DNA of 64,000 nucleotides from a virus (taxonomy: Duplodnaviria; Heunggongvirae; Uroviricota; Caudoviricetes), in the IMG/VR virus record IMGVR_UViG_3300032731_000668, positions 1 through 64,000 of that record. The stretch is one strand, 5' to 3'. A model generated the notes under the pieces. It searched no databases, was not told the origin of the DNA, and saw only the letters and a list, made by a program, of their open reading frames with translations. This document shows positions 9,154 to 63,969 of the stretch, piece after piece (the first letter of the stretch is position 1; each line of letters begins with the position of its first letter). The translations under genes and the position numbers were made by a program.

Positions 9154-9407
9154 AAAAATCTACTTTAAAATATTACAATGGCGGAGATAATTATAAAGGT
9201 ACTTTCAATATAAATTTGGTCGAAAGAAAACGGTGGCATAAAAAAGCTAAAGAAAGCGGTCAGGTTGGCTATCTGACTGGCTATCATTATGACTATGATG
9301 GGGAAAAATCAAGTGTGGTTTGTTATTTTAGAAAAAAACCATCTTTTGATACCATTAAACTAAGACGCAGAAATGGACTTCTTCGTGCTACGTGGTATTG
9401 GTTATAA
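9150..9407 (+). CDS. hypothetical protein (85 aa)
   Basis: ORF overlapping the previous stop; GGTAAAAA RBS. Confidence 0.5.
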   Translation: MKKSTLKYYNGGDNYKGTFNINLVERKRWHKKAKESGQVGYLTGYHYDYDGEKSSVVCYFRKKPSFDTIKLRRRNGLLRATWYWL

Positions 9408-9435
9408 CAAAACCACATAAAAGAGAGATTTTATT
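9407..9435. repeat. intergenic inverted-repeat element (AACCACATAAAA...ATTTTAT family)
   Basis: caaaaccacataaaagagagattttatt; motif begins at the stop codon of the upstream CDS. Confidence 0.7.
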
Positions 9436-9613
9436 ATGAAAATAAAAACAAAAATATTTATTAATGATATCAATGAATATGCGAAAAATAATCAATTGTT
9501 TTGGGTTTGTGCTATGGCAAAAGATTGCAACAAAATCTTAGTCAATCATTTAGATAAATTGCATGAAAGCGCAAGAATAGCAGTAGAACATTATAATAAT
9601 AAGGAGAATTAAT

Positions 9614-9841
9614 ATGGATAATCACATAGACATGAATCACAAAGAGATCATAACAGATTTAATGGTTAGATTATATTGTGAAAAAGTTAGTCTATACCAT
9701 CAGATTTTTGAGAAACAAGACGTATTGAATAATCAGATCATGATATTGCAAGAATTAATGTTAGCCGAAGGATTAGAGTATGGTATAAATTTTATGAGTT
9801 TCGACAATTTAATTAAGTATGACGTAGAGGAAAAATTTTAA
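9614..9841 (+). CDS. hypothetical protein (75 aa)
   Basis: ORF with AAGGAGAA RBS. Confidence 0.5.
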   Translation: MDNHIDMNHKEIITDLMVRLYCEKVSLYHQIFEKQDVLNNQIMILQELMLAEGLEYGINFMSFDNLIKYDVEEKF

Positions 9842-9842
9842 A

Positions 9843-10142
9843 ATGAACATCAATCAAATCGAAGTAATACACGATAGCAATAAATTATTTTCCTTTTTAG
9901 GCAACAATCCAGATATATTAAAAAGTTATATAAAAGAGCATAAAAAATTGATTGAGGAAGAATACCCCCATACAAATATAAATATCCATTTTGGAGAAAT
10001 AGATTGCAATACAATAATTAAAATGAACGGTAAAACATATAACAGTAATAATATTGGCGTATTAAATGATCCGAATTTTATACCAGAAAATATTTTATTT
10101 TTAGAAGATCAGATTGATTTATGCAACCTTAAAAAATGCTAA
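9843..10142 (+). CDS. hypothetical protein (99 aa)
   Basis: ORF adjacent to the previous stop. Confidence 0.55.
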   Translation: MNINQIEVIHDSNKLFSFLGNNPDILKSYIKEHKKLIEEEYPHTNINIHFGEIDCNTIIKMNGKTYNSNNIGVLNDPNFIPENILFLEDQIDLCNLKKC

Positions 10143-10147
10143 AACAC

Positions 10148-10175
10148 TTGACAAAAATATAAAAAAGTGTATAAT
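10148..10175 (+). promoter_or_regulatory. consensus sigma70-like promoter TTGACA-16-TATAAT
   Basis: TTGACA 10148-10153, TATAAT 10170-10175; drives CDS 10202 onward. Confidence 0.7.
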
Positions 10176-10201
10176 GAAGTAGGAATAAAGGAGAAAATAT
10201 T

Positions 10202-10402
10202 ATGAGAACAAGCAACAAGGTTTTTACAACAGGAGCACATTTATATCCACTTCTTGTTGCCTTTGAAAACGGCAACAAACAATGGCGTTGGGTTGTTAGT
10301 AGATTTGAAGACGATAGTTTTGGTGATGATGGTGAACCAGTTGATATATATGCATATGCAGACACAGAAGAAAAATTATTTGTTCCAGAAGATGAAGGAT
10401 AA
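10202..10402 (+). CDS. small highly acidic protein (66 aa)
   Basis: ORF with AAAGGAGAAAA RBS; Asp/Glu-rich C-terminal half. Confidence 0.55.
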   Translation: MRTSNKVFTTGAHLYPLLVAFENGNKQWRWVVSRFEDDSFGDDGEPVDIYAYADTEEKLFVPEDEG

Positions 10403-10405
10403 AAA

Positions 10406-10591
10406 ATGAAAAAATTTAATGTTTATTCTAACGAAACAGTATTCTATATGCAAACTATTGAAGCCGAAAACGAAAAAGAAGCATATGAAAAAGCCGACCA
10501 TGCAGGGAATTTTCTTCTTGGGGAAGATGATGTACAAGGTGGAATGGATTCTGGTTGGCATGTTGAATTTGTGGAAAAAGTTAAGGAATAA
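10406..10591 (+). CDS. small acidic protein (61 aa)
   Basis: ORF directly after 10202-10402; acidic. Confidence 0.55.
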   Translation: MKKFNVYSNETVFYMQTIEAENEKEAYEKADHAGNFLLGEDDVQGGMDSGWHVEFVEKVKE

Positions 10592-10594
10592 ATT

Positions 10595-11359: not shown

Positions 11360-11370
11360 TAGGAGAAATA

Positions 11371-11559
11371 ATGTTTTTAATTTTGCTAAGAATTCCAGAA
11401 GTTGATAAATTTTGTATGAGTGTTGAGCATTTACACGTTGTCGAAATACAAAAGTTGTTAAAAAAGGAAAGATGTTTATGGAAAAGATATATTTTGAAAA
11501 AGTTGATCAAAATTGAGTTTGATGAATATAATTTTATGGAAAAGACAAATCAAAATTAG
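11371..11559 (+). CDS. hypothetical protein (62 aa)
   Basis: ORF with AGGAGAAATA RBS. Confidence 0.4.
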   Translation: MFLILLRIPEVDKFCMSVEHLHVVEIQKLLKKERCLWKRYILKKLIKIEFDEYNFMEKTNQN

Positions 11560-11574
11560 CAAAAGGAAAATAAA

Positions 11575-11814: not shown

Positions 11815-12212
11815 AAGGAATAAAAGACAAGAAGCTAAGAGGAAAGAGATAACATGAAAATATGGATTGGACTTATTAGGAAAAGTCTTGCTTTTCGTTA
11901 ATGTAGGTTGTGTAATTATTAAAATTGCGCAAATAATGGCAAGACTATAAAAATCACATAAAATGATAGTTTCTGTGGTACACTAATAACAGATAAGGAG
12001 ATAAAATGTTTTGGTTGATTTTTGGACTATTATTTGCTTGGTTTGCAGACGATTTGCTACAATTTGAATGGAGTAATGCTTTTTTTGAGCCAGATTTTAG
12101 TAGAGTAGTAGCATTTTGTTTTTGTTTAATAATTGTGTATATGAAAGGGGTTTTTGAGGAAGACTAAACAACATAAAATGATAGTTTTATCATATAAAAA
12201 AGGAGATTAGAA

Positions 12213-12647: not shown

Positions 12648-12672
12648 AACCACATAAAACGATAATTTTATC
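12648..12672. repeat. intergenic inverted-repeat element (AACCACATAAAA family)
   Basis: aaaccacataaaacgataattttatc. Confidence 0.7.
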
Positions 12673-12686
12673 TGAAAAGGAGAACT

Positions 12687-13463
12687 ATGTTAACAAAAAC
12701 ATTAAGGTTTGATGAACAAGTTTTAACAGTATTAAGGTCAATGGATTGGCAAAATGATGGTGAATTAGGTATTCTTACTTGCGGTCAGTTAGATCGCAAA
12801 ATGTATACTTCGGTAAATAAGGCATTAGACGCAATGGGCGGTAAATGGAATCGAAAATTAGGCGGTCATGTGTTCAAAATCGATCCAAGAAATCAAGTTG
12901 AAGGTCTTTTAGATTCTGGCGAATTGTTAGTAGAAAAAGACGGATTTTTTGAAACTCCCACCGAAGTAATCGATCGAATGTTTGAAGTTGCCCCACCTCT
13001 TATTAATGAAAGAGTATTAGAACCTTCCGCGGGAATCGGTGCGATTGCATTGAGATTAATTGAAGTTAGATATAAAGCTACATACCTTAATTTGATTGAA
13101 AAGAATGCTGTCAGAGTTGATATTTTGAAAGAAAAATTTAATGAAGCATCCATTAGGTGTATGGATTTTTTAAGTTTGAATCCATTGACAACTAACCGAA
13201 AATTTGATAGAATCTATATGAATCCACCATTTGAAAATTTACAAGACATAGATCATGTACAACATGCATATAAATTTTTATCTGATAATGGCATTATGGT
13301 TTCTGTAATGGCTGAATCTGCATTTTTTAGAAGCGATAAAAAATCAGTTGCGTTTAGAGAATGGCTTACTGGATATAACGAAGAACTACCAGAAGGATCA
13401 TTCAAATCATCTGGGACAATGGTCAAAGCTAGATTGGTTGTAATAAAAAGTAAAACCACATAA
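12687..13463 (+). CDS. N6-adenine DNA methyltransferase (258 aa)
   Basis: SAM motif I LEPSAGIGA and catalytic motif IV IYMNPPF (NPPF). Confidence 0.85.
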   Translation: MLTKTLRFDEQVLTVLRSMDWQNDGELGILTCGQLDRKMYTSVNKALDAMGGKWNRKLGGHVFKIDPRNQVEGLLDSGELLVEKDGFFETPTEVIDRMFEVAPPLINERVLEPSAGIGAIALRLIEVRYKATYLNLIEKNAVRVDILKEKFNEASIRCMDFLSLNPLTTNRKFDRIYMNPPFENLQDIDHVQHAYKFLSDNGIMVSVMAESAFFRSDKKSVAFREWLTGYNEELPEGSFKSSGTMVKARLVVIKSKTT

Positions 13464-13480
13464 AATAAGGATTTTATCAT
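13452..13480. repeat. intergenic inverted-repeat element (AACCACATAAAAT...ATTTTATC)
   Basis: aaaaccacataaaataaggattttatcat; the TAA inside the left arm is the MTase stop codon. Confidence 0.75.
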
Positions 13481-14209: not shown

Positions 14210-14238
14210 TTGACAAATAAGAAAAATTATGATATACT
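14210..14238 (+). promoter_or_regulatory. sigma70-like promoter TTGACA-17-TATACT
   Basis: TTGACA 14210-14215, TATACT 14233-14238. Confidence 0.6.
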
Positions 14239-14577
14239 AAAGTGCACTTACGAGAAAAAAAGATATACATATATTATTTTTTAAAAAAATGTAATATACG
14301 AAAATTTTGATTGAATAACAAATGTAGATAATCCGAAAAGAAAAACAGATAAAAGAAAGATTTTATTATATAAAAGGAGATTGAGATGAATATTTTTATA
14401 AAAATATTATTTTGGATAATATGGTGTTTATTAAGCGGTAGCGTTGTGGGAAGATGGGTTGCGAATAAAAGGGGCGGGTGGTTTCATCTTATTGTTGCTC
14501 TTATTGCCTTGTCTGTAATAAATTTAGGCATTTTATATTTGATCAATACTTATTTAATAGTATAAAAGGAGATTAAA

Positions 14578-15402: not shown

Positions 15403-15752
15403 CTAAAAAATTAAACGAAAAAATGGCGGAAGTGATGGGGTGGCATAAGGGAAAAGGCACTAAATCGGTATTCTCTGGTCTCACGGTTATTTGGTGGCGA
15501 GATAGTAATGATGAAGCACAATGTAAACTTTTCGACTGGAATCCCACAGAGGACTTGAATCAGGCGGTGCGGTGTGTGTTTAAGTCTGGCGCATCAAAGG
15601 TTTCAATTACAGAGGTTGATGTTGATAGGTATATGGCAAGCATTTATCCAGATTGTTTTTCAGACGATAATAAGCCAACATGCAAAATTTCTAATACTGC
15701 TTCACTCGCCATCTGTGAAGCAATCCGAGAAGCGATACTTGAAACAAGATAA
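15399..15752 (+). CDS. hypothetical protein (117 aa) in a locally GC-richer segment
   Basis: GGAG RBS before ATG 15399; composition differs from its neighbours. Confidence 0.5.
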   Translation: MTKKLNEKMAEVMGWHKGKGTKSVFSGLTVIWWRDSNDEAQCKLFDWNPTEDLNQAVRCVFKSGASKVSITEVDVDRYMASIYPDCFSDDNKPTCKISNTASLAICEAIREAILETR

Positions 15753-15786
15753 AATCACGATTTTATCATAAAAAGGAAATAAAATA

Positions 15787-16991: not shown

Positions 16992-17253
16992 AAATAATAA
17001 AAGGAAAGGAGAGAAAAATGGATTATGGAATACCTGTACTTCCAGCAGCGGGTGGCGGAATTGCCTTAACAACATTTGGATTTTATAGTAATAATTATAT
17101 TGTCTTAATGTTGGGAGTAGTTTTATTAGCAGTAGTGTTAGTTAGTCATATCAAATTAAGAATAAATGAAAAGTAAGTAATAAATAATTGTTTCGCCGCC
17201 GCCAAAAAATATACGATAAAATCGTACTTTTATTGTGAGAAGAAAAAAATAAA

Positions 17254-18857: not shown

Positions 18858-18883
18858 AATAAAATGACTATTTTATGTGGTTT
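18858..18883. repeat. intergenic inverted-repeat element (ATAAAAT...ATTTTATGTGGTTT)
   Basis: aaataaaatgactattttatgtggttt. Confidence 0.7.
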
Positions 18884-19760: not shown

Positions 19761-19913
19761 ATGAAATGTAGGTATTGTAAAAGGTTAGGGGTAATATATG
19801 ATGAAGATGGACGTGCCGATATTTGTGTAAATTGCTATGGGATAGGTAAAGTAACTTTAAAAATATGGTTAAATCAGTTGTACGAGAAAATCGGACAACT
19901 CAAAACCACATAA
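19761..19913 (+). CDS. small zinc-ribbon protein (50 aa; CRYC...CVNC)
   Basis: Below the track cutoff; its stop codon lies inside the inverted-repeat element 19903-19930. Confidence 0.35.
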   Translation: MKCRYCKRLGVIYDEDGRADICVNCYGIGKVTLKIWLNQLYEKIGQLKTT

Positions 19914-19930
19914 AATTTATCTTTTATCAT
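19903..19930. repeat. intergenic inverted-repeat element (AACCACATAAAAT...TTTTATCAT)
   Basis: aaaaccacataaaatttatcttttatcat. Confidence 0.7.
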
Positions 19931-19968: not shown

Positions 19969-20154
19969 ATGTTAAATATGATCGGGGGTTTTGGATATCC
20001 TTCTTATAATTATGATTCTGCTACTTGGGTTTGTAAAGTATCTATATTTGAAGGAAATGGAGATTACAAAGATATAACAGGTTGTGGGGTCAATATTGCT
20101 CAAGCATTATGTCATTTAGTGATAGAACTTAAACATTATAAGGAAAATAAATGA
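19969..20154 (+). CDS. hypothetical protein (61 aa)
   Basis: ORF with AAGGAGAAAA RBS. Confidence 0.5.
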   Translation: MLNMIGGFGYPSYNYDSATWVCKVSIFEGNGDYKDITGCGVNIAQALCHLVIELKHYKENK

Positions 20155-25260: not shown

Positions 25261-25287
25261 AATACCACATAAAACAAGAATTTTATC
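25261..25287. repeat. intergenic inverted-repeat element (ACCACATAAAA...ATTTTATC)
   Basis: aataccacataaaacaagaattttatc, immediately upstream of promoter 25293. Confidence 0.7.
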
Positions 25288-25292: not shown

Positions 25293-25321
25293 TTGACAGG
25301 TTTTGAAATATATGATATAAT
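25293..25321 (+). promoter_or_regulatory. consensus sigma70-like promoter TTGACA-17-TATAAT
   Basis: TTGACA 25293-25298, TATAAT 25316-25321. Confidence 0.65.
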
Positions 25322-25337: not shown

Positions 25338-25529
25338 ATGGATAATAAAATTCCAATAGAAGAATTGCTTGAAGACTTTGGGGTAGAGAATGAGGACGAG
25401 CTGTACGCCAAATTAACGGATGATTCTAACACTATTCCATGCATCGTATGCGGGAAAGAAATTCCGATAGAAGAAATTAGAATTGTTGGTGATGATCCAT
25501 ATTGCAAGAGGTGCAAGAATAGTTTATGA
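25338..25529 (+). CDS. small zinc-ribbon protein (63 aa; CIVCG...CKRCK)
   Basis: AAGAGGAAATAT RBS before ATG 25338; the track ORF 25293 would begin inside the promoter. Confidence 0.5.
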   Translation: MDNKIPIEELLEDFGVENEDELYAKLTDDSNTIPCIVCGKEIPIEEIRIVGDDPYCKRCKNSL

Positions 25530-25858
25530 ACATTATTTTGAAATGGGATAGTAGTAGAGTTACTATAGAACAATTCGCCAATATGTGTAGATCTTATGCG
25601 GGACTGATGCCACAATATCAGATAGTTTATCATCTAATTGATATGGTTGCAACAATGGCTTTTGATACAGATATTAATGATTATGTTGATAAAGATGTTG
25701 CTATAAAAGTTTTGACTAAATTTAGTTATTATGATTTTTCTTTATTGGCCAAAGAATTAAATAAACAACAAGAAGAAAACGGGTTATTATTGATGGCACA
25801 AAATTTATTTGGAAATAATGTTAAGTTTTCGGAAACTAAAAAACACAATAAAATATAG
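25526..25858 (+). CDS. hypothetical protein (110 aa)
   Basis: ORF overlapping the previous stop. Confidence 0.55.
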   Translation: MNIILKWDSSRVTIEQFANMCRSYAGLMPQYQIVYHLIDMVATMAFDTDINDYVDKDVAIKVLTKFSYYDFSLLAKELNKQQEENGLLLMAQNLFGNNVKFSETKKHNKI

Positions 25859-25978
25859 ATTTTATGAGGAAATAAGATGAACATATATATTCAAATAGTT
25901 GTTGGTCTGTTGATAATAGTGGCATTTTTTTGCGTTATTTGTATCGGAGTTCTAATGATACAAATGCTAAAAATGAAG

Positions 25979-26007
25979 TAAACACAATAAAATGTACGTT
26001 TTATCAT
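25979..26007. repeat. intergenic inverted-repeat element (AACACAATAAAAT...TTTTATCAT)
   Basis: taaacacaataaaatgtacgttttatcat. Confidence 0.7.
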
Positions 26008-27203: not shown

Positions 27204-27223
27204 ACTATAGATAGAATTAATAG

Positions 27224-27279
27224 GGAAGGCTTTAGTTGGCGGAACATTACGTTTGCGAGTTCGAATCTCGCCCTTCCTT
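27224..27279 (+). tRNA. tRNA-like element lacking a D-arm (acceptor stem + anticodon-like hairpin + canonical T-arm), about 56 nt; pseudo-tRNA or recombination remnant
   Basis: 7-bp acceptor gggaagg/ccttcct, 5-bp hairpin with a 7-nt loop, T-stem gcgag/ctcgc with the consensus T-loop TTCGAAT; too short for a canonical tRNA and no CCA. Confidence 0.45.
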
Positions 27280-27581: not shown

Positions 27582-27606
27582 ATAAAATGTATATTTTATG
27601 TGGTTT
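27582..27606. repeat. intergenic inverted-repeat element (ATAAAAT...ATTTTATGTGGTTT)
   Basis: ataaaatgtatattttatgtggttt. Confidence 0.7.
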
Positions 27607-28365: not shown

Positions 28366-28397
28366 GAAAACACGATAAGATAATGGTTTTATTGCAC

Positions 28398-28426
28398 TTG
28401 ACAAATATTGAATTATGTGATACAAT
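28398..28426 (+). promoter_or_regulatory. sigma70-like promoter TTGACA-17-TACAAT
   Basis: TTGACA 28398-28403, TACAAT 28421-28426. Confidence 0.6.
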
Positions 28427-28656: not shown

Positions 28657-28845
28657 ATGACTTATGTATATCAATGTAAAAAATGCAAAAAAGAATTTGA
28701 ACTTGTTGCTGGTTTTTTAACAATCTTATCATTAGAAAAACAATGTCCTCATTGTGGATCTAAAAAAGTGGCAAGAAAATTTGTTCCTATTGATTTTATT
28801 TTAAAGGGAAATGATTTTTATAGAAACAACAAAGAAGACAAGTGA
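28657..28845 (+). CDS. FmdB-type zinc-ribbon protein (62 aa)
   Basis: YQCKKCKKEF...CPHCGS pattern. Confidence 0.5.
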   Translation: MTYVYQCKKCKKEFELVAGFLTILSLEKQCPHCGSKKVARKFVPIDFILKGNDFYRNNKEDK

Positions 28846-49366: not shown

Positions 49367-49399
49367 AAAACACAATAAAATACAGGTTTTATGTGGTTT
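49367..49399. repeat. intergenic inverted-repeat element (AAACACAATAAAAT...TTTTATGTGGTTT)
   Basis: aaaacacaataaaatacaggttttatgtggttt. Confidence 0.75.
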
Positions 49400-49616
49400 A
49401 GAAAGGAAAAATGACTATTGAAAGTCAGTTTGATAATGAATATGATTGTATAGAACAAGAATTTGAAGAAGGTTTGATTGATGAAGATGAATATATTCGG
49501 CGCATGAAAAATCTTGAAGAAGAAGGAAGGCAAGCGAATATATTCGCAGACAACGATTTGCCTTTTTAGCAATAAAACTAAATAAAATTCAGATTTTATT
49601 GTATAAGGAGTAATAA

Positions 49617-50189: not shown

Positions 50190-50486
50190 ATGTGCAAAAA
50201 TATGGTTCCTACACGTATCATAGATTATTATGGTGACGCAAAATCAATGACTACTTCAGAAGCAAATGCTAAGGCAAGAGATATTTATGATGAAATTATG
50301 GATGATGATTTTTGTCCCATAGTAGAATATGGAATTTGTTATTTTAAAATAAATAAAACTTGGAAACAAATTTTCAAAGAGGCTAAGAAATTGGCGACTA
50401 AAGAACTAAAAATCTTGCAAAAAAATAATGAAGATAATTTCTATGAACATGAAATTAGGGTGTTGCAAAATATAATAAAAGAGTAA
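50190..50486 (+). CDS. hypothetical protein (98 aa)
   Basis: ORF with AGGATG-context start. Confidence 0.5.
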   Translation: MCKNMVPTRIIDYYGDAKSMTTSEANAKARDIYDEIMDDDFCPIVEYGICYFKINKTWKQIFKEAKKLATKELKILQKNNEDNFYEHEIRVLQNIIKE

Positions 50487-50513
50487 TTTTATTTGGTTTA
50501 AAAAGAAAATGAA

Positions 50514-50786
50514 ATGAAAAAAATAACTAAACACTTTATTTGGGCAAATATATTCGATGCTATTAGCACAGGTTTTGCCTTAAGCCAAGGCTGTGTCGAG
50601 ATGAATATTCTTGTGAATAGGTATGGATGGATTGTTGGCTGCGTAGCTAAAATCTTGGCGACAATACTTGTGGCCTATGTTTTAGAAAGAGTCAAAGAGT
50701 GGTGGTTTTTTTGGGTTCTTCCTATACTTATATGGTTGATTGTTGTATGGAATATTTTCAATGGTATTATGGTGGCAACACAATAA
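50514..50786 (+). CDS. small membrane protein (90 aa, 2-3 TM)
   Basis: Hydrophobic segments. Confidence 0.5.
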   Translation: MKKITKHFIWANIFDAISTGFALSQGCVEMNILVNRYGWIVGCVAKILATILVAYVLERVKEWWFFWVLPILIWLIVVWNIFNGIMVATQ

Positions 50787-50807
50787 AATAACTATTTTAT
50801 GTGGTTT
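50777..50807. repeat. intergenic inverted-repeat element (AACACAATAAAAT...ATTTTATGTGGTTT)
   Basis: aacacaataaaataactattttatgtggttt; left arm contains the stop of 50514-50786. Confidence 0.75.
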
Positions 50808-51313: not shown

Positions 51314-52579
51314 ATGAAAGAATTTTTTGAAAATTTCTTAAAAATATTACAAGAAAACCAGGTTCTTTTGACCACATTAGGTATCGGTGGTGCTGGAACA
51401 ATTATAATGTGGTTGAAGGGTGTGCCCCAAACATTTTTCAATTTATTAAAAAGAGAATTTACAACCGAGATGACTATCACTAGTCAAAATATTTCATTTT
51501 TTAATGTTATAAAATTGTTAGAAAAAACCTACGCAGATAAAAAATGGAGAAAATTAAAAGTTATGAACGGAAGATGGGGGGCTGAAGAAACTGTTCTTGG
51601 GATTGGATATGGACATCATACTTTGATATACAAAAAAAACCTTCTTTTTATAACCTTGGTAAAAGAATCTGCAAATCAAACCAATTATGACAAAGATTCA
51701 CTAACTTTTTTAAAGTTGGGCAGAGACTATGGACTTTTTAAACAAATTATAAGTGATGCTGATGAAATAGCAGAAGATAAAAGTTCTAACAAAATATACA
51801 AAATGGAGGACGGATGGCGCTATGTAAAAGACCAGAAAAAAAGGGCTTTAAGTAGTGTGTTTTTAGAAAAAACTAAGAAGAAATATTTATTAGAAACCAT
51901 AGATAAATTTATATCTAGCGAAGAATGGTATCTTTCACATGGTATTCCTTATCAATTAGGAATATTGTTATATGGTTCGCCTGGAACAGGTAAGACTAGC
52001 TTAATTAAGGCAATAGCGGCATATTTAAACTACTCAATTTATTATTTACCTAGTTCAAGATTATACAAAATTGAAAAAGCAGTGTCTTTATTGCCAGACA
52101 ATTCTATTTTGGTGATTGAAGATATTGATACTAATGATATTACTAATAGAAGAGACAATGGATGGGATCAACCAGACGTACCCGAAGGTGCAAGTGGGAC
52201 TGCTCCAACAACATCCAATAACAAATCTTCTGATGATAGAGACTTTGAAACTTTTTTGAAGATGGGATTGTCCGAGATACTAAATTCTTTAGATGGCATT
52301 TTTGCTACTCACGGAAGAATTTTAATTGCTACCACAAACTACCTAGAATCATTGGATTCTGCATTAATTCGTCCTGGCAGAATAGATATAAAAATAGAAG
52401 TAGGATATGTAAACAACGAAGTATTGAAAGAGTTTTGCAATAGTTTCTTTCCCGAAAACAAAATTAATTTTGATGAAATAAAGATTAAGAAAAATAAACT
52501 TACCGTAGCATTATTGCAAAATATGATACTTGAAGGTAAAACATTACAAAATATTTTAGACTTTGTAGAAACCCAATAA
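51314..52579 (+). CDS. BCS1-like AAA+ ATPase with N-terminal TM segment (421 aa)
   Basis: Walker A GSPGTGKTS, Walker B LVIEDIDT; BCS1-type LSEILNSLDGIF...ATTNYLESLDSALIRPGRIDIKIEVGY. Confidence 0.8.
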   Translation: MKEFFENFLKILQENQVLLTTLGIGGAGTIIMWLKGVPQTFFNLLKREFTTEMTITSQNISFFNVIKLLEKTYADKKWRKLKVMNGRWGAEETVLGIGYGHHTLIYKKNLLFITLVKESANQTNYDKDSLTFLKLGRDYGLFKQIISDADEIAEDKSSNKIYKMEDGWRYVKDQKKRALSSVFLEKTKKKYLLETIDKFISSEEWYLSHGIPYQLGILLYGSPGTGKTSLIKAIAAYLNYSIYYLPSSRLYKIEKAVSLLPDNSILVIEDIDTNDITNRRDNGWDQPDVPEGASGTAPTTSNNKSSDDRDFETFLKMGLSEILNSLDGIFATHGRILIATTNYLESLDSALIRPGRIDIKIEVGYVNNEVLKEFCNSFFPENKINFDEIKIKKNKLTVALLQNMILEGKTLQNILDFVETQ

Positions 52580-52604
52580 AAGAATGATTTTATGAGATAA
52601 GATA

Positions 52605-54118: not shown

Positions 54119-54147
54119 TTGACAAAACGCAAATAGTATGATATGAT
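54119..54147 (+). promoter_or_regulatory. sigma70-like promoter TTGACA-17-TATGAT
   Basis: TTGACA 54119-54124, TATGAT 54142-54147; upstream of the recombinase gene. Confidence 0.65.
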
Positions 54148-54173
54148 ACTATCATTAACTATGGAGGTTTTCG

Positions 54174-55091
54174 GTGAATAAATCTTTTATTGAATTAGAA
54201 AAATATTATGAATTAAAATCCATTGATTGTACTAAGGCGACCCTTTTTTATTATAAAAATACACTTGATAAATTTGTTTTATATTTTGATATAAAAAACA
54301 TTAGTGATTTATCAAATATAAAATCCGAGGATATACAACAGTACATGTATTTCTTAGCCAATAATAAAAATGCTAAAAATTCTAATACTGCAAAAAATTC
54401 CGCCAATGCTCATTTTCGGGTTATTAAAGCTTTCTGTAACTGGTTAATAGAACAAGATTATCTTGCAAAATCACCATGTGAAGGTATTAAACAATTTAAG
54501 ATAGCTAAAGAAATAAAATTTTATTTAAAGAAAGATGAAATAAAATCTATTTTGTTGAATTGTAGAAGCGCAAAAGATAAACTTATAATTGCTCTATTAT
54601 TATATACCGGTATTCGTGTTGGGGAAATATCCAAGATAAAAATTTCTGATATTGACGATAACCATCTTTTGATTCACGGCAAGGGACGTAAGGAGAGAAA
54701 TGTAATTCTGATTCCTTATATTATAGATTTATTAGGAAAATACTTAGAAACAAGATCAGATGAAAACGAATTTTTACTTGTTTCTAGAAAGAATTTTGGA
54801 AAAAGGTCAAGGGAATTACACAGTGTTACACCCCAAGCTGTCAGAGATGTTATTAAAAAAATAGCCAAAAGATCTGACATTGATACAAATAGAATAAATA
54901 ACATTACGCCCCATACATTTAGACGAACGTTTGCTGTCAATCTTGCCAAAAATGGACACGCTTCTTCTTTTCAAATTCAAAAAGCATTGGGGCATTCAAA
55001 TATTCAAACTACCCAAATTTATCTTGAGGCGGCCGGAGCCGAGATTTCAGATTCGGCATTATTAGGTCAGGTTGTGCCTATTGGAATATAA
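54174..55091 (+). CDS. tyrosine recombinase/integrase (XerC/D-like) (305 aa, GTG start)
   Basis: C-terminal catalytic region HTFRRTFAV...LGHSNIQTTQIYL (R..HxxR..Y); GGAGG RBS. Confidence 0.85.
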   Translation: MNKSFIELEKYYELKSIDCTKATLFYYKNTLDKFVLYFDIKNISDLSNIKSEDIQQYMYFLANNKNAKNSNTAKNSANAHFRVIKAFCNWLIEQDYLAKSPCEGIKQFKIAKEIKFYLKKDEIKSILLNCRSAKDKLIIALLLYTGIRVGEISKIKISDIDDNHLLIHGKGRKERNVILIPYIIDLLGKYLETRSDENEFLLVSRKNFGKRSRELHSVTPQAVRDVIKKIAKRSDIDTNRINNITPHTFRRTFAVNLAKNGHASSFQIQKALGHSNIQTTQIYLEAAGAEISDSALLGQVVPIGI

Positions 55092-55276
55092 TAAAAGGAG
55101 AACTTATTATGGTTGGTATTTTAAGATTTATCAGCAACATGTTCGTGACACTTATAGTTGTTCAGGAATTGTTTTTTCCAGAATTACTTAAACCTTGGGC
55201 ATGGTATAAATGGGTGTTCTTGGCAATTGGTGTTATTATTGTTAATTATCAAGAATAGTAATAAAAGGAGGATTTT

Positions 55277-55552
55277 ATGCAAGAATATAAAGGAACAGTC
55301 AGACGAGAAGAGAGTGAAGATTTAGAGGTTTTGAATCTTGTTCCGTCTTTTCACGAGAGTAATATCAAACGTCAGTCAGTTTGTATAGCTCCATTAACGA
55401 GACATGAAACTTCAATTATAATGTCAAAGACAAATGAAAAAGGAGGGTCTTCATTCTGTCATTTCATATTTACCGAAAGAGAAACAGACATGTTGATTGA
55501 GGCTCTGCAAGAAGTAAAAACTAGATGGAAAGAGAATAAGGTAATAGAATGA
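55277..55552 (+). CDS. hypothetical protein (91 aa)
   Basis: ORF with AAAAGGAGGA RBS. Confidence 0.5.
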   Translation: MQEYKGTVRREESEDLEVLNLVPSFHESNIKRQSVCIAPLTRHETSIIMSKTNEKGGSSFCHFIFTERETDMLIEALQEVKTRWKENKVIE

Positions 55553-55558: not shown

Positions 55559-55753
55559 ATGGTTTTTATGCATACTAATATAAAAAAGTTAAAAAAGATG
55601 ATAGGGTATTTTCAGGGATTTTCCGACGAAGAAGTTGTAGAAGTTGAAGTTGGAGATGTTAAAAAAGCATTATTAGACCTTTTAGAGTTAAAAGAAATGG
55701 TTGATGTTATTGCTCGCCAGGTTGAGAAATATTACGGAATACCAATAGGATAA
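55559..55753 (+). CDS. hypothetical protein (64 aa)
   Basis: ORF adjacent to the previous stop. Confidence 0.45.
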   Translation: MVFMHTNIKKLKKMIGYFQGFSDEEVVEVEVGDVKKALLDLLELKEMVDVIARQVEKYYGIPIG

Positions 55754-55776
55754 AAGAAACATTTTATGAGGTTTAA

Positions 55777-55980: not shown

Positions 55981-56201
55981 CATCCTATTCAAGAGGCCAT
56001 AAAACATATTACAATGGGAGTGAGTGGCTATATTGTGATAACAATAAGCCAGAAGACGAAATGAGACCATGCGCAAGGTGCGGGAAGTCTCCCACGCCAG
56101 AAGGATATGATGCTTGCTTAGGTTATATTGAGGGAGTTAAAAGTGCTTGTTGTGGGCATGGAGTGTCTGTTGTAATAGAAATGAAAGATGAAACACAATA
56201 A
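55974..56201 (+). CDS. Cys-rich small protein (75 aa)
   Basis: CARCGKSP...CLGY...CCGHG cysteines. Confidence 0.5.
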   Translation: MVTSYSRGHKTYYNGSEWLYCDNNKPEDEMRPCARCGKSPTPEGYDACLGYIEGVKSACCGHGVSVVIEMKDETQ

Positions 56202-56224
56202 AATTACAATTTTATGTGGTTTTA
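56191..56224. repeat. intergenic inverted-repeat element (AAACACAATAAAAT...ATTTTATGTGGTTTT)
   Basis: aaacacaataaaattacaattttatgtggtttt; embeds the stop of 55974-56201. Confidence 0.75.
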
Positions 56225-56722: not shown

Positions 56723-56776
56723 AAGCATAAAACGTACTTAATCGGCAATATGTTGCCGATTAAAAAAGGAGAAATA

Positions 56777-56992
56777 ATGACATTAACAAACGAAGATTTA
56801 AATAATAGATTTACATATCATAAGCCAAATGAAAAAACTATAATGACCCATCAACTAATTCGTAATTTTGGTTTAGAATTAGCCAATGAATTAAACAATC
56901 TTTTGCCCGATGGACGAGAAAAGTCTTTGGCAATTACAAAATTAGAAGAAGTAGTTATGTGGGCAAACGCTTCTTTAGCGAGGAATAGCTAA
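56777..56992 (+). CDS. small conserved protein, tandem paralog A (71 aa)
   Basis: AAAAAGGAGAAATA RBS; about 60% identical to 57041-57256. Confidence 0.5.
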   Translation: MTLTNEDLNNRFTYHKPNEKTIMTHQLIRNFGLELANELNNLLPDGREKSLAITKLEEVVMWANASLARNS

Positions 56993-57019
56993 AACCACAT
57001 AAAAGATTGATTTTATATG
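56991..57019. repeat. intergenic inverted-repeat element (AAAACCACATAAAA...ATTTTAT)
   Basis: aaaaccacataaaagattgattttatatg. Confidence 0.7.
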
Positions 57020-57040
57020 ATTTAGAAAAGGAAAAATAAA

Positions 57041-57256
57041 ATGACATTAGACGAAAAAGATTTATTAAATAGATTTACTTATCATGCACCAAACGAAAGA
57101 GATGTATTAAACCATGAAGCAATTCGAAATTTTGGATTAGATTTAGCGAGAATATTGAATGACTTATTACCAGACTCAAGAGAAAAGTCATTAGCTATGA
57201 CAAAACTTGAAGAAGCTATAATGTGGGCAAATGCTGCAATAGCGAGGAATAAGTAA
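57041..57256 (+). CDS. small conserved protein, tandem paralog B (71 aa)
   Basis: AAAGGAAAAATAAA RBS; RFTYHxPNE...AIRNFGL.LA..LN.LLPD.REKSLA.TKLEE..MWANA shared with paralog A. Confidence 0.5.
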   Translation: MTLDEKDLLNRFTYHAPNERDVLNHEAIRNFGLDLARILNDLLPDSREKSLAMTKLEEAIMWANAAIARNK

Positions 57257-57283
57257 AACCACATAAAAATATAATTTTATCAT
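57255..57283. repeat. intergenic inverted-repeat element (AAAACCACATAAAAAT...ATTTTATCAT)
   Basis: aaaaccacataaaaatataattttatcat. Confidence 0.7.
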
Positions 57284-57309: not shown

Positions 57310-57843
57310 ATGAATAGAAAAAAATACATTAATAGATACGATATTCAGAAACGTGTCGAAGAATTGGCGATTGAAATAGATTGTGATTATAGCGGTTTGG
57401 ATGATCGTATTTGTATTGTCGGCATTTTGCGTGGCGCTTTTATTTTCTTGGCGGATATGTCAAGATTATTAGATACGAGACACACTATTGATTTTATTTC
57501 AATTGGTAGTTATGATAAAGATAATTCAGGAAATGTTAGGTTATTGATGGATACAAGAACCGATGTTTCAGGAAAACATGTTCTTATTGTAGAAGACATT
57601 ATTGATAGCGGCAAAACAATTAATTATCTTGTTGACTTATTTTTAAATCGAAATGTAGCAAGTGTAAAAACATGTACCTTATTTAGAAAAAATGGATCAA
57701 AAGAAACCTCTAACATAGATTATATTGGATTTGATGTCCCTAAAGAACATTGGCTCGTTGGTTATGGCTTAGATTTTGATAATAAATATAGAACATTACC
57801 AGATGTCGAAATATTAAAACAATCAGATGAGGAGCTAAATTAA
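57310..57843 (+). CDS. hpt: hypoxanthine(-guanine) phosphoribosyltransferase (177 aa)
   Basis: PRPP-binding motif VLIVEDIIDSGKT and LVGYGLDFDNKYRTLP match bacterial Hpt closely. Confidence 0.9.
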   Translation: MNRKKYINRYDIQKRVEELAIEIDCDYSGLDDRICIVGILRGAFIFLADMSRLLDTRHTIDFISIGSYDKDNSGNVRLLMDTRTDVSGKHVLIVEDIIDSGKTINYLVDLFLNRNVASVKTCTLFRKNGSKETSNIDYIGFDVPKEHWLVGYGLDFDNKYRTLPDVEILKQSDEELN

Positions 57844-58910
57844 TGCATAGAGGCGCATATATTATTGTCGGTGCACAATGGGGCGATGAGGCAAAAGGAA
57901 TGGTGAGTGCTTATTTGTCCATAAGAGAAAATGCTAAAATTGTTTGTAGGGCTGGAACTGGACCAAACGCAGAACATGGTGTTTTTCTAAAAGATGAAAA
58001 AACATATATAAAAACAAATCAGTTGCCTTTAGGTTGGATATTCAATCCTGATATTCAAATTCGTATTGGGTCTGGTGTAGCCGTTGATCCAGTCAAACTA
58101 ATGTATGAAATAAATAAATATAAATTACATAATCGTGTAAAAATAGATTATCGTTGTCCTATTATTACATCAGAACACATTAAAGCAGAGAAAAACAGCA
58201 AGGGAATGGCCTCTATTGGCTCAACATTTAGTGGAACCGGTTATTGTCGAGCAGACTTTATTTTACGAAAAGCAAAGCAGGCACGAGACATAGAAGCATT
58301 AAAAGACTATATAACGGATTGTAGCACTGAGATAAATAATGAGGCTAGAACTGAAATTGTAATTATAGAGTCTTCACAAGGAACATTTCTTTCATTAGCT
58401 TTAAGCGAAGATTATCCAAACACAACCTCCGATAATGTTACTGCAATGGCTGCCGCCGATGACGTATTGTTAAATTGGAAAAACTTAAAAGAAGTAATTT
58501 TAGTTGTAAAAGCATTACCTACTCGCGAAGGTAGCGGAGATATAGGAGCAAGAGAATTATCGTCTGAAGAAATTATTTCTAAAGGGTTGGTTGAACCAAG
58601 TTCAATTGGCGGGAAAACAAGAAGAAAAGCCGAGGGAATTAATTTCGACATGCTAAAATATGCAGTAGAAGTAAATGGGGCAACACAAATCGCACTTACA
58701 TTTTGTGATCATTATGACCCTCAAATTAAAAATGCTAAAGCAATAAGTAAAATTACTCCAAGAATATGGGAATTGATTTATGAAATCGAAACTTCTACTG
58801 GTGTACCGGTTACTATTCTAAATACAGGTAAACCGTATAATTGTATTATTGATCGAACTGAAAATTCTGTTGATTGGGAGAGTATAGATAACAATATTCT
58901 GAAATTATGA
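57843..58910 (+). CDS. purA: adenylosuccinate synthetase family protein, short form (PurA-like; PurZ candidate) (355 aa)
   Basis: N-terminal P-loop IIVGAQWGDEAKG (PurA VxGxQWGDEGKG); conserved blocks IGSGVAVDP, ESSQGTFLS; about 75 aa shorter than bacterial PurA; guanine-specificity TKLD region reads TFCD. Confidence 0.85.
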   Translation: MHRGAYIIVGAQWGDEAKGMVSAYLSIRENAKIVCRAGTGPNAEHGVFLKDEKTYIKTNQLPLGWIFNPDIQIRIGSGVAVDPVKLMYEINKYKLHNRVKIDYRCPIITSEHIKAEKNSKGMASIGSTFSGTGYCRADFILRKAKQARDIEALKDYITDCSTEINNEARTEIVIIESSQGTFLSLALSEDYPNTTSDNVTAMAAADDVLLNWKNLKEVILVVKALPTREGSGDIGARELSSEEIISKGLVEPSSIGGKTRRKAEGINFDMLKYAVEVNGATQIALTFCDHYDPQIKNAKAISKITPRIWELIYEIETSTGVPVTILNTGKPYNCIIDRTENSVDWESIDNNILKL

Positions 58911-59880: not shown

Positions 59881-59905
59881 ATAAAATTGAGATTTTATGT
59901 GGTTT
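59881..59905. repeat. intergenic inverted-repeat element (ATAAAAT...ATTTTATGTGGTTT)
   Basis: ataaaattgagattttatgtggttt. Confidence 0.7.
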
Positions 59906-60553: not shown

Positions 60554-60554
60554 A

Positions 60555-61836: not shown

Positions 61837-62111
61837 AAATATTAAAATCAATCATGGTAGAAAAAGCAGAAACGGTCGCAATTGTATGTAATAAATGCGG
61901 TACACAATTTGATTGTGAAAAAGATCTTGCCGCCAATCTAATTCATGGATTTCACATACAGTTTTGTTACGGAAGTAAACATGATTTAGAAGAATGGTAT
62001 TTTGATTTATGTGAAAAATGTATAGATAAATTGACGGGTTCTTTTAAAATTAAGCCCACAAAACTTGAAATAGGTCCATTCGGCGAACAATACGGAAGAG
62101 AGTTAAAATGA
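61833..62111 (+). CDS. small zinc-ribbon-like protein (92 aa; CNKCG...CEKC)
   Basis: ORF overlapping the previous stop. Confidence 0.5.
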   Translation: MKILKSIMVEKAETVAIVCNKCGTQFDCEKDLAANLIHGFHIQFCYGSKHDLEEWYFDLCEKCIDKLTGSFKIKPTKLEIGPFGEQYGRELK

Positions 62112-62371
62112 CTACACAAATAGAACATATAGAATGGCATAGTGCAGAGAATCCGCCCAAAACGGACGGTGTCCACAGCGTACCGATATTGGCTCAGTCA
62201 GCAGATAGACAATATAAAAGTACGTCTTATATGAGTGTATTAAAACATGGAGAACCAACCAGAGAATGGTTTTATGCTTGGTCTGAATACGATGCAGATA
62301 ATTATTGTTATAAACAAAAGGAAGTTATCGCATGGGCAGAGAGACCTAAAGGTTGGCAGGAGACAAAATGA
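62108..62371 (+). CDS. hypothetical protein (87 aa)
   Basis: ORF overlapping the previous stop. Confidence 0.5.
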   Translation: MTTQIEHIEWHSAENPPKTDGVHSVPILAQSADRQYKSTSYMSVLKHGEPTREWFYAWSEYDADNYCYKQKEVIAWAERPKGWQETK

Positions 62372-62583
62372 GTATGTACTTGATTGGAGAAATGTCGTTT
62401 GATCCATATTATATGAGTCGTGGTGGGCCACTAATTGAACTTTGGAATGGTGAAATCTATCACACTAAATCTAGAGCCGGAAAAGAACTAAAGAAATTAA
62501 AAAAACGATTAGCCGACGAAGGAAATCCTTATCCTCAGCTTTGTCTTATTGACGACGATAAATATAATGTAATTAAAGAATAA
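62353..62583 (+). CDS. hypothetical protein (76 aa)
   Basis: ORF overlapping the previous stop. Confidence 0.5.
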   Translation: MAGDKMSMYLIGEMSFDPYYMSRGGPLIELWNGEIYHTKSRAGKELKKLKKRLADEGNPYPQLCLIDDDKYNVIKE

Positions 62584-62613
62584 AACACAATAAAATCACA
62601 GTTTTATGTGTTT
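62582..62613. repeat. intergenic inverted-repeat element (AAAACACAATAAAAT...TTTTATGTGTTT) running into a TTGACA -35
   Basis: aaaacacaataaaatcacagttttatgtgttt, followed directly by promoter 62612. Confidence 0.75.
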
Positions 62614-62640
62614 GACAAAAATGGCAATCTATGTTACACT
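62612..62640 (+). promoter_or_regulatory. sigma70-like promoter TTGACA-17-TACACT
   Basis: TTGACA 62612-62617, TACACT 62635-62640. Confidence 0.6.
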
Positions 62641-62664
62641 GAATAGTGTATAAGTTGGAATAAA

Positions 62665-62994
62665 ATGAAAAAACGAAAATGGATTTATATACAGAAACCA
62701 CAGAGTTATGGAGTTTCTTGTAATTTGTGCAAAGGAATAAATATTGAGTGGTCTGAATATGAGCATATGATATGGTGCTTTGATTGTGAGAAAGACGTAT
62801 CGGGTACAGATGGAATATTTAATGGGCCAATGTTAATGCATACATCTAATTTGTTGGGCATGAATTTTGATAGAATAGAACTAAAAACCGGACAACGATT
62901 ATATATGACGCGAAGAGGCGATAAGTTTATTTGGTGTCATAAAAAACCTAATCCAAAATATGATCCACAATACATAAAAAGAAAAGGTAAATAA
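62665..62994 (+). CDS. Cys-containing protein (109 aa)
   Basis: CNLCKG...CFDCEKD. Confidence 0.55.
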   Translation: MKKRKWIYIQKPQSYGVSCNLCKGINIEWSEYEHMIWCFDCEKDVSGTDGIFNGPMLMHTSNLLGMNFDRIELKTGQRLYMTRRGDKFIWCHKKPNPKYDPQYIKRKGK

Positions 62995-62997
62995 ATT

Positions 62998-63228
62998 ATG
63001 AATAATCAAATAGTTAAAAATTGGGAAGAGATTTTCTTAGAATATGCCGATCATATGGCAAAAGAATACGGAGAGAAGGCACGTACCGATACTGATATGC
63101 GTGGAGCATGGTTTTCGCGTGGAGTTGCTAGCGCATACGAAGCACTAAAAGTGGAATTTTATTGTGCAAAGCATGGAATTGAGCTTGTTCAACCTGAAAC
63201 GATCGCATCAGAAAAAGCATTGGAGTAG
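62998..63228 (+). CDS. hypothetical protein (76 aa)
   Basis: ORF adjacent to the previous stop. Confidence 0.5.
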   Translation: MNNQIVKNWEEIFLEYADHMAKEYGEKARTDTDMRGAWFSRGVASAYEALKVEFYCAKHGIELVQPETIASEKALE

Positions 63229-63497
63229 TGATGAAGAAACCATTTAAGATGAGGTTTTTAATCCACCAGAAACATTCGGCTGTAATCAATGGGAGACGAA
63301 AGATGACTAAAGAAATTGAAATAAACAATGTCGAGGTGCTAAAAGAAATACGCAGAAAACAGTGTATTAATATTGCAAGGCTAACCGCAGAAAACAGCAA
63401 ACTTAAAGACCTTATCCGTAGTCTTTACAGCGATTATTGCGAAGATATGCTTGATAAAATAAGCCTAAGTGTTTTGAGCGAGGAAAACAACAGATGA
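63228..63497 (+). CDS. hypothetical protein (89 aa)
   Basis: ORF overlapping the previous stop. Confidence 0.5.
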   Translation: MMKKPFKMRFLIHQKHSAVINGRRKMTKEIEINNVEVLKEIRRKQCINIARLTAENSKLKDLIRSLYSDYCEDMLDKISLSVLSEENNR

Positions 63498-63778
63498 TTG
63501 AATTTGTAAGGTATAGTTTACCAAACGGAAGAAGGACAACCGAAACGATATCCATTGACCCAGAAACAGATCGGCTTGGAAATAAATTGATTGAATCCGG
63601 CATTGTTTTTTCGACTGAAATTCTAACAACTGGAATGGTTGCACTGTACGCAATAAATAAAAATCTTCCAGATGCCGAAGAACAGGAACTTTGTTACATT
63701 TCACAAAACGGGCCAGAAATAATTGGCAAGGTGAGAGATATGATAAATGAAGCATCTAAAATGTGGAATAAACAATAA
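63494..63778 (+). CDS. hypothetical protein (94 aa)
   Basis: ORF overlapping the previous stop. Confidence 0.5.
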   Translation: MIEFVRYSLPNGRRTTETISIDPETDRLGNKLIESGIVFSTEILTTGMVALYAINKNLPDAEEQELCYISQNGPEIIGKVRDMINEASKMWNKQ

Positions 63779-63969
63779 TGAAAAAATTATTTATATTGTT
63801 TATATTATTTTTATTCAAAAAAACCATAAAGATTTCAATGTATGACAATATTGGAGGGTATTTTGTTGACGAGATAGAAGTATCTCAACATGCCCACGGA
63901 GAAGAAAAAATTAGAATTACATTAAGGTCAAGGCAAAACACAATAAAACCACAATTTTATAAGGTTTAA
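63778..63969 (+). CDS. hypothetical protein (63 aa); C-terminal codons coincide with a hairpin element
   Basis: ORF overlapping the previous stop; element 63945-63967 lies inside its 3' end. Confidence 0.45.
   Translation: MKKLFILFILFLFKKTIKISMYDNIGGYFVDEIEVSQHAHGEEKIRITLRSRQNTIKPQFYKV
63945..63967. repeat. inverted-repeat element (AAAACACAATAAAA...ATTTTAT)
   Basis: aaaacacaataaaaccacaattttataaggttt. Confidence 0.65.

Follow-up and report, generated by a model that had tools for sequence, protein, structure and literature searches.

Interrupted palindromes dispersed over gene junctions in a clade of uncultured phages: a candidate palindromic variant of stoperator-like sites

We analysed positions 1 to 64,000 of the IMG/VR virus record IMGVR_UViG_3300032731_000668 (Caudoviricetes). 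This stretch of 64,000 nucleotides, hereafter the window, comes from a large uncultured phage. It carries 27 exact copies of a short interrupted palindrome, ATAAAA-N6-TTTTAT, when 0.21 ± 0.46 copies are expected from dinucleotide shuffles. The element lies at gene junctions and is conserved in related phage loci in the degenerate form ATRAAA-N6-TTTYAT. Comparison with known systems suggests, as the best-supported reading, a new palindromic variant of dispersed operator or 'stoperator'-like sites. Stoperators occur in Cluster A mycobacteriophages, whose repressor has over 20 sites, located in short intergenic spaces, at which elongation is halted (PMC9283540). Judging from the pattern of sequence conservation, the palindromes are probably double-stranded DNA sites for a two-fold symmetric protein. 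That they function specifically as operators or roadblocks is a more tentative proposal, to which we give somewhat less than even chances.

The conserved unit emerged from the alignment of matches to a 13-mer. A sequence-only reading of this DNA had described a family of over-represented intergenic inverted repeats with paired 13-nt arms, AACCACATAAAAT and ATTTTATGTGGTT. The over-representation is borne out: the 13-mer has 36 matches at up to two mismatches when 8.1 are expected, and all 14 coordinates listed as examples correspond to core sites. The family also occupies the range given for it (9407–63967), except for one site, at 3452, which falls outside. The paired arms exist as a family-level consensus only, since no site has both. 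What the sites have in common is an 18-bp palindrome with an invariant spacer. When we scanned spacers of 0 to 11 nt in the window, we found 27 exact copies at spacer 6 and at most one at each other length. The spacer had been described as variable (3–8 nt), and this had been used to argue for a hairpin rather than a dimer site; given the fixed spacing, that argument rests on a misreading. The motif is essentially all-or-none in the window: only seven sites at spacer 6 have a single mismatch, which is the background level (6–13 at other spacers). One of the single-mismatch sites, at 28375 (ATAAGA), is a member of the family.

Beyond the core there is only a weak extension: A is preferred at −1 and T at +18, and the spacer tends to begin with T and to end with A (aATAAAAt-N4-aTTTTATt). 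The content of the spacer is unconstrained, and all spacers differ between sites. Profiles made for each genome showed that the flanks seen in the window (AAAAC.. and GTGGTTT) are specific to the source phage. Even there, the left arm resembles AACCAC (at least 5/6 matches) in eight sites and the right arm resembles GTGGTT (at least 5/6) in nine, with no site having both (r = −0.42). The extended arm thus occurs on either side of the core and never on both, which argues that the element is used in both orientations relative to transcription. A literature search for the motif itself found nothing. By comparison with their consensus sequences, and not by computation, we rejected a DnaA box, an IHF site, an UP element, a CRP-like site, a PlcR box, a NusG pause motif, a TATA-like box and a restriction-modification or methylase target.

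We collected contigs of relatives through homologues of the AAA+ protein of the window, and counted palindromes in them de novo as pairs of hexamers. The core is the most frequent palindrome in L013 (AAA+ protein 70% identical; 9 sites in 13.9 kb), L016 (59%; 11 sites in 21 kb), L031 (60%; 11 sites in 15 kb) and L033 (53%; 12 sites in 21 kb). L011 (72%) has only two exact sites, tied for the top rank, and L015 (72%) has variant sites. A paired-site scan of IMG/VR added L036, L045, L056, L064, L072, L078, L082, L085 and L089, and the core is again the top palindrome in L036, L056, L082 and L089. This tandem-site scan retrieved 66 loci, of which about ten are true clade members and the rest mostly chance pairs or tandem repeats in AT-rich bins of giant viruses. 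An exact scan of IMG/VR with the right arm specific to the window gave scattered matches only, and a search of the Joint Genome Institute (JGI) metagenomes with the PurA-like protein gave two distant or short loci, neither of which has sites. In total, the clade has 180 sites (ATRAAA-N6-TTTYAT) in 19 loci and 264 kb, with AAA+ ATPases 53–72% identical. Exact sites in the clade loci number 148 at spacer 6, versus 0–3 at spacers 3–9. The relatives with at most 57% identity in the AAA+ protein (L017–L030 and L032) have no sites, including loci at 28–34% GC. These distant loci are equally AT-rich and serve as a control for composition.

Hence, related phages do carry the same element, but its flanks are not kept. 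Only the 12 core bases, together with the weak edge preferences, are common across genomes. For example, the window, L031 and L033 have an orthologous junction where the AAA+ gene ends, and it keeps the 12 core bases at the stop codon while its surroundings have diverged. In L033, a perfect 14-bp hairpin, TTGTCCAGTTAATT-TTAT-AATTAACTGGACAA, directly follows this palindrome (L033:11230–11262); it is a separate structure and may be a true terminator.

An inverted repeat on the transcribed strand between genes could act in the polycistronic mRNA, where it might attenuate transcription, direct RNase processing, affect stability or modulate the initiation of translation. We regard such an RNA hairpin as unlikely. 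Stems of 10–14 bp had been proposed, but when we folded the sites of the window (34 nt each) they formed a mean of seven symmetric pairs, and their minimum free energy (MFE) averages −3.3 kcal/mol and varies from −0.1 to −8.3. The core alone folds to −0.4 kcal/mol, and the idealised consensus hairpin (−14.4 kcal/mol) is realised at no site. The 14 sites listed as examples range from −0.1 to −8.3 kcal/mol, with z-scores of −0.1 to −3.7 relative to dinucleotide shuffles, and several of them have an MFE structure other than the central hairpin. Some window sites do reach −5 to −8 kcal/mol (z about −2 to −3.7). In at least a few (9417, 55261), the spacer or the right arm carries the Shine-Dalgarno sequence (SD), so that transcripts read through the motif. 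The extended arm lies on either side of the core, and the RNA would therefore differ between sites. The stems at the window sites are AU-only and show none of the features of intrinsic terminators, neither a GC-rich stem nor a U-run. Terminator-like sites are not enriched either, with 4, 8 and 6 in three scanned segments versus 5.3, 8.0 and 8.0 expected.

In the clade, single-mismatch sites are in excess (81 versus about 34), mostly because of two mirror-image variants: ATGAAA in the left half (15 versus a background of 0.5) and TTTCAT in the right half (19 versus 0.33). Other mirror-image pairs of substitutions are weaker (3G/8C and 5T/6A). We oriented each site by the local coding strand, and saw both variants in the sense orientation. 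Across the 19 loci, the combinations at the two positions are A-T in 144 sites, G-T in 19, A-C in 15 and G-C in 2, which is what independence predicts (odds ratio 1.0, Fisher p = 1). L036 alone has 8, 4, 8 and 2, respectively. The 19 G·U-compatible variants and the two compensated G-C sites would suit a stem. Yet, A·C mismatches are not avoided and are as frequent as the variants compatible with G·U. An A·C combination would interrupt a 6-bp AU stem at its middle. The A·C sites fold to −0.8 kcal/mol and lie in the same context, with GAGG or GGAG and an ATG directly after them. The sequence of the stem does not covary but stays invariant, we found no covariation at the spacer edges or in the outer flanks, and pairing of the flanks is at or below the shuffle expectation. 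These patterns favour a recognition site for a regulator over an RNA hairpin. Both had been among the candidate roles proposed for the family; the regulator site fares well, while the terminator, the attenuator and the RNase or stability element fare poorly, because the hairpins are marginal, lack covariation, tolerate A·C and have neither a U-tract nor a GC-rich stem.

All 27 window sites lie at gene junctions. In the clade loci, 121 of 175 sites either overlap the upstream stop codon or have it no more than 12 nt away, and across the 19 loci the next start codon follows the motif at a median distance of 18 nt, in agreement with the short distance noted before. The TAA of the left half had been described as the stop codon of the upstream gene in most cases. 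This holds for 9 of the 27 window sites, and TRA is the stop codon in 60 of 175 sites overall (34%), with a further 46 having a stop codon at most 12 nt upstream of the motif. Since 34% is the share expected when one frame in three provides the stop, its embedding in the motif is a side effect of tight packing and no design feature. Where spacers are long, the motif is nearer to the upstream stop in 30 cases and nearer to the downstream start in 16. The sites are essentially confined to junctions although two of the three frames could encode the motif, which suggests that their function is tied to gene boundaries. It is not tied to translation: in L033, a palindrome (L033:2252) precedes a tRNA-His gene by 5 nt, at a place that has no ribosome-binding site. 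This gene opens a cluster of six tRNA genes (His, Trp, Gly, Met, Lys and Arg; L033:2252–3797).

The window has about 12 near-consensus σ70-type promoters (TTGACA-17-TATAAT, often with TG). Three of them have a site 4–6 bp upstream of the −35 hexamer, without overlap with either the −35 or the −10. This confirms the earlier observation of three sites abutting a TTGACA, which belongs in each case to a TTGACA-N17-TAnnnT promoter (25293, 28398 and 62612). In the clade, a consensus TTGACA promoter starts 4–15 bp past five sites, namely these three, L016:1875 and L033:13239. The other 24 of the 27 window sites have no adjoining promoter. The distribution along the window is uneven. A block of about 20 kb has no internal sites and almost no intergenic DNA, and is bracketed by the site and promoter at 28375/28398 and by the site at 49375. 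The first 9.4 kb have a single site despite the presence of intergenic spacers. Close tandem sites are frequent, and a gap of 4 bp (22-bp period) occurs five times in four genomes. The proteins encoded downstream of tandem sites are unrelated to each other.

Independent, symmetric degeneracy of the half-sites, a fixed spacer free of constraint on its content and an extended arm in either orientation together point to a homodimer that reads double-stranded DNA, and not to a structure-dependent RNA. The operator-like element would thus consist of two inverted 5′-ATRAAA-3′ half-sites exactly 6 bp apart, both read by a dimeric sequence-specific DNA-binding protein. This protein is most likely encoded by the phage, since the motif occurs in a single phage clade only. 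Sites just after stop codons, before ribosome-binding sites and in some cases upstream of a −35 suggest that the bound protein controls transcription. The genes between the sites would be transcribed from strong promoters of the host σ70 type, and the protein could control their transcription genome-wide. Its most likely mode of action would be to block elongation at the junctions and to damp the adjacent promoters, and the purpose might be the temporal shut-off or the silencing of arrays of early and accessory genes. We have speculative candidates for the binder. Small Zn-ribbon proteins (25338–25526 and 28657–28845) follow two of the promoters flanked by the motif and recur in L011, L016 and L033; the second is homologous to genes of the relatives annotated as PF09723.

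Several observations weigh against a dimeric operator protein of this kind. Pfam and PHROGs searches of 107 small open reading frames (ORFs) of the window revealed no helix-turn-helix (HTH), ribbon-helix-helix or repressor/regulator family. The sole annotated HTH gene, of the XRE family and with a site upstream, is in L016 and has no homologue in the window. Unlike in classical operators, most strong promoters of the window have no overlapping site. The gaps between tandem sites (1, 4, 6, 7, 11–14 and 24 bp) are not cleanly in helix phase. An A+·C wobble is isosteric with G·U, so that the A·C sites only weaken the case for RNA. Finally, stoperators are asymmetric 13-bp sites bound by a monomer and oriented to match transcription, whereas the window has palindromes of 18 bp, which include a 6-bp spacer and imply a dimer.

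The sites may also be compared with those of site-specific recombinases. Xer/dif sites consist of inverted arms of about 11 bp around a central region of 6–8 bp, and pdif sites flank 'dif modules' on Acinetobacter plasmids. The palindromes resemble both in their inverted arms, 6-bp centre and multiple copies at module borders, and a Xer-like recombinase is encoded nearby. They could be core-type recombination sites for this tyrosine recombinase, bordering small gene cassettes as in the pdif modules. We find this quite improbable, and a narrower version, with dif-like sites of the single Xer recombinase of the phage bordering accessory cassettes of one to three genes (e.g. anti-defence), very unlikely. 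The invariable 6-bp spacer matches the architecture of dif/XerA-type sites, and in the profile of the window one arm, the left, reaches about 12 nt. But in the relatives (L013, L016, L031 and L033) only 6–7 bp of the arms are conserved, versus about 11 bp for Xer. The sites coincide with gene borders, the regions that hold them are extremely mosaic and have few genes in common, and one unit of a gene and a site is tandemly duplicated (56750–57280). However, all spacers differ, which makes classical exchange between different sites impossible, and a set distance to promoters and close tandem sites are not expected of crossover sites. In NCBIfam, the recombinase scores 180 bits with XerA (cutoff 220) and about 135 bits with XerD and XerC, below every cutoff. 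Its homologues lie near the AAA+ gene in the motif-bearing L013, L016 and L031, and none was found in 12 sampled loci lacking the exact core (among them L015, where variant sites were found later). It is important to highlight that this co-occurrence is confounded by phylogeny.

The surroundings of the recombinase gene itself hold no palindrome and no dif-like site, only the gene's own conserved σ70-type promoter. A near-consensus TTGACA promoter precedes it in four phages (window 54119–55091, L013:11340–12291, L016:16110–17057 and L031:3535–4479); the promoters of the window and L013 are partly alike in sequence, and in L013 a tRNA-His gene lies immediately upstream. Integron attC sites are imperfect palindromes of 57–141 bp with RYYYAAC...GTTRRRY core sites, and fold as single-stranded DNA. 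In contrast, the element has only 18 bp, pairing is not maintained, inspection of the alignments by eye, not a pattern search, showed no GTTRRRY core, and integron-integrase models score far below their cutoffs. If the sites did serve recombination, large phages would have a site-specific exchange of cassettes comparable to pdif modules or integrons, and the extreme mosaicism of the site-bearing regions would be explained.

We find it very doubtful that the motif is a promoter or initiator used by a σ factor, an activator or an RNA polymerase specific to the phage, with transcription starting at or just after the right half. Phage-specific promoters would show the same all-or-none conservation and the same density of about one site per 1.5–2 kb. 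The motif lies 10–20 nt before many start codons and 5 nt before a tRNA gene, and TAAAAT resembles a −10 hexamer. Yet, the ATGAAA variant loses the key −11 A of that hexamer, and a perfectly two-fold symmetric promoter would fire both ways while the genes are all on one strand. The SD is often 0–2 nt past the motif or within the spacer, which leaves no leader, and no initiator is conserved downstream. In long spacers the site adjoins the upstream stop codon, and the consensus σ70-type promoters directly after five sites would be redundant. The least probable explanation is a passive repeat without a dedicated reader, spread by duplication or recombination like the homologous-recombination substrates of the PeSL (promoter-early stem-loop) type: flanks common to several window sites (AAAAC.., GTGGTTTA and CATATAAAAGGAG) suggest common descent of some spacers, and three sites have a PeSL-like layout of element then promoter, but PeSLs are composite, about 100 bp long and have stem-loops that are stable and GC-rich, and the survival of the core bases alone across genomes, including at one orthologous junction, indicates purifying selection on the exact sequence.

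Table 1. Palindromic sites, adjoining promoters and other annotated features of the window. Core sites are exact copies of ATAAAA-N6-TTTTAT.
Feature	Position	Strand	Remarks
Core site	3452..3469		15 nt past upstream stop; TTGACA 18 bp downstream
Beta sliding clamp	6860-7870	+	
Core site	9417..9434		SD-like spacer GAGAGA; ATG 1 nt past motif
Core site, gene junction	12173..12190		
Core site, gene junction	12654..12671		Extended left arm AACCAC
Core site	13460..13477		TAA is stop of gene 12687-13463
Core site in 5′ leader	14349..14366		About 105 nt downstream of promoter 14210-14238; ATG 19 nt on
Core site	15749..15766		TAA is upstream stop codon
Core site, gene junction	17216..17233		
Core site	18859..18876		Extended right arm GTGGTT
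Core site	19910..19927		TAA is upstream stop codon
ATP-dependent DNA ligase	20151-21284	+	
Core site	25269..25286		6 bp upstream of −35 hexamer of consensus promoter
σ70-type promoter TTGACA-17-TATAAT (12/12, with TG)	25293..25321	+	Directly after site 25269
Core site, gene junction	25848..25865		Upstream stop codon within spacer
Core site	25987..26004		3′ of short hydrophobic ORF
Core site	27582..27599		TAA is upstream stop codon; right arm GTGGTT
Anthrax-toxin lethal-factor-like (ATLF) metalloprotease-domain gene	27598-28365	+	E = 8e-18; phage early region
One-mismatch site ATAAGA-N6-TTTTAT	28375..28392		5 bp upstream of −35 of promoter heading 20-kb glycosylation block
σ70-type promoter TTGACA-17-TACAAT (11/12, with TG)	28398..28426	+	After site 28375
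Sugar-modification block, about 20 kb of overlapping genes	28448-49357	+	Headed by consensus promoter at 28398
Core site	49375..49392		Directly 3′ of last gene of 20-kb block (stop at 49357)
Core site, gene junction	49582..49599		
Core site	50475..50492		Upstream stop codon within motif
Core site, gene junction	50783..50800		
BCS1-like AAA+ ATPase	51314-52579	+	
Core site	52576..52593		TAA is stop of BCS1-like AAA+ gene; same position in L031 (7158) and L033 (11212)
Xer-like tyrosine recombinase	54174-55091	+	Pfam Phage_integrase 7e-33
Core match	55261..55278		GGAGGA in spacer, ATG overlaps right half; could be chance ribosome-binding-site context
Core site	55750..55767		TAA is upstream stop codon
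Core site	56198..56215		TAA is upstream stop codon
Acb2/Tad1 hairpin-domain genes, tandem paralogues	56750-56992, 57041-57256	+	E = 1e-18, 3e-21
Core site	56999..57016		3′ of first Acb2/Tad1-like gene
Core site	57263..57280		3′ of second Acb2/Tad1-like gene (paralogue of first)
Phosphoribosyltransferase, then short archaeal-type adenylosuccinate synthetase (PurA/PurZ-like)	57310-58910	+	
Core site	59881..59898		TAA is upstream stop codon; next ATG overlaps right half
Core site	62590..62607		4 bp upstream of −35 hexamer of promoter
σ70-type promoter TTGACA-17-TACACT (with TG)	62612..62640	+	After site 62590
Core site near window end	63943..63960		

The window has a GC content of 31%, and all its plausible genes are on the plus strand. 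Megablast against the GenBank phages gave no match, and tblastn matches reached only about 30% identity, to jumbo phages. The Logan contigs that carry the AAA+ gene match the window at 100% identity and thus offer no strain variants; the longest has 168 kb, so that the window covers 64 kb of a genome of at least this size. A search of GTDB genomes for the host returned a single match, to a distant metagenome-assembled genome of Verrucomicrobiota, which is uninformative. Besides the genes of Table 1, the window encodes several DNA methyltransferases and homing endonucleases. The 20-kb block includes an aminotransferase, epimerase/dehydratase enzymes, methyltransferases and at least six glycosyltransferases. 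Phages do not usually have operons of this size for the biosynthesis or modification of sugars. This one might be used to hypermodify DNA or to modify glycans, and L015 and L016 have blocks like it. The synthetase at 57310–58910 is labelled PurZ-like in PHROGs and scores 295 bits with PurA (PRK04293) and 117 bits with PurZ in NCBIfam, both below the cutoff. The pair it forms with the phosphoribosyltransferase hints at 2-aminoadenine (Z) or another purine remodelling. The Acb2/Tad1-like proteins are nucleotide sponges that counter Thoeris and the cyclic-oligonucleotide-based antiphage signalling system (CBASS), and each of the two genes has a palindrome at its 3′ side. A Tad2-like domain matched one of the 107 small ORFs.

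A search for RNA genes in the window found no tRNA gene and matched no Rfam family. A fragment at 27223–27279, with an acceptor-like stem and a GTTCGAATC T-arm, is tRNA-like and apparently truncated. Its score with the Rfam tRNA model is 16.6 bits (the gathering score is 29), and ARAGORN does not report it; the fragment may be what is left of a tRNA, or a mimic. Near the start of the window, ACGGGAAGATTTTT is repeated three times head-to-tail (744–785) within an intergenic spacer of 162 nt. Two further families of intergenic repeats are present. One has a unit of about 60 nt (..TATACCTATACGCAAGCAyAGrATyrArTCTAACAGGTTTAAAA..TTGATATAkAATG) and the other consists of a GTTTGCGTA box that precedes hexamers resembling those of promoters. 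Between them, the two families account for 2481–2620 and 2867–2927, and also for 4513, 7872 and 25221; they look like a separate promoter class in a region poor in palindromes. This region (1–9400) has many minimal spacers of the form TAA-AAGGAA(T)AA-N-ATG and almost no palindromes (only 3452), which suggests a distinct, possibly immediate-early, expression class.

If the palindromes are indeed operators, a single invariant palindromic operator, placed at gene junctions, lets a whole clade of uncultured phages (genomes of at least 130–170 kb) control dozens of their early and accessory genes. The controlled genes would include the anti-CBASS/anti-Thoeris sponges and the 20-kb glycosylation operon. 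In practical terms, ATRAAA-N6-TTTYAT can be used as a tag in metagenomes for members of the clade and for the boundaries of their genes and operons, and the 18-bp site is a defined bait for fishing out the regulator.

Among known systems, Rho-independent terminators and the RNase III sites of T7 are, like the window sites, intergenic inverted repeats between co-directional genes. The window sites differ in having no double-stranded RNA of about 20 bp, no GC-rich stem and no U-tract, and in conserving sequence rather than pairing. Dispersed palindromic operators are also known: the 'conserved inverted repeats' of the phiC31 repressor, the KorA and KorB sites of RK2 and the C1 sites of P1 number 7–20 and are mostly promoter-proximal. 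Each of these sets serves one regulator; they share with the window sites the many conserved intergenic copies in a mobile genome, some of them away from promoters. The sequences and regulators are different, and the window has at least 27 sites in 64 kb, mostly at junctions within operons. The PeSLs of T4-type phages are composites of about 100 bp with a stable hairpin, often with a G/C tract, and demonstrated terminator activity (PMC2839356); these cassettes are larger than the palindromes and carry stable GC-rich terminator hairpins (PMC2839356, PMC4122927). Like the window sites, they are repeated intergenic cassettes among small variable genes of early regions, and three window sites are PeSL-like in being followed by a consensus σ70-type promoter and then an SD. 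In contrast with PeSLs, the window sites have 12 conserved bases and a marginal hairpin, and 24 of 27 have no promoter. In their distribution, the window sites resemble the stoperators of the L5 (gp71), Bxb1 and TipsytheTRex repressors: more than 20 dispersed copies, in short intergenic spaces and at promoters, at a similar density of about one per 1.5–2 kb. Stoperators block both initiation and elongation, and we propose by analogy that the window sites may do the same. The phages and hosts concerned are unrelated to those of the window. Hence, if our reading is correct, the logic of stoperators, so far known only in Cluster A mycobacteriophages, would extend to an unrelated lineage and to a site of the dimer type.

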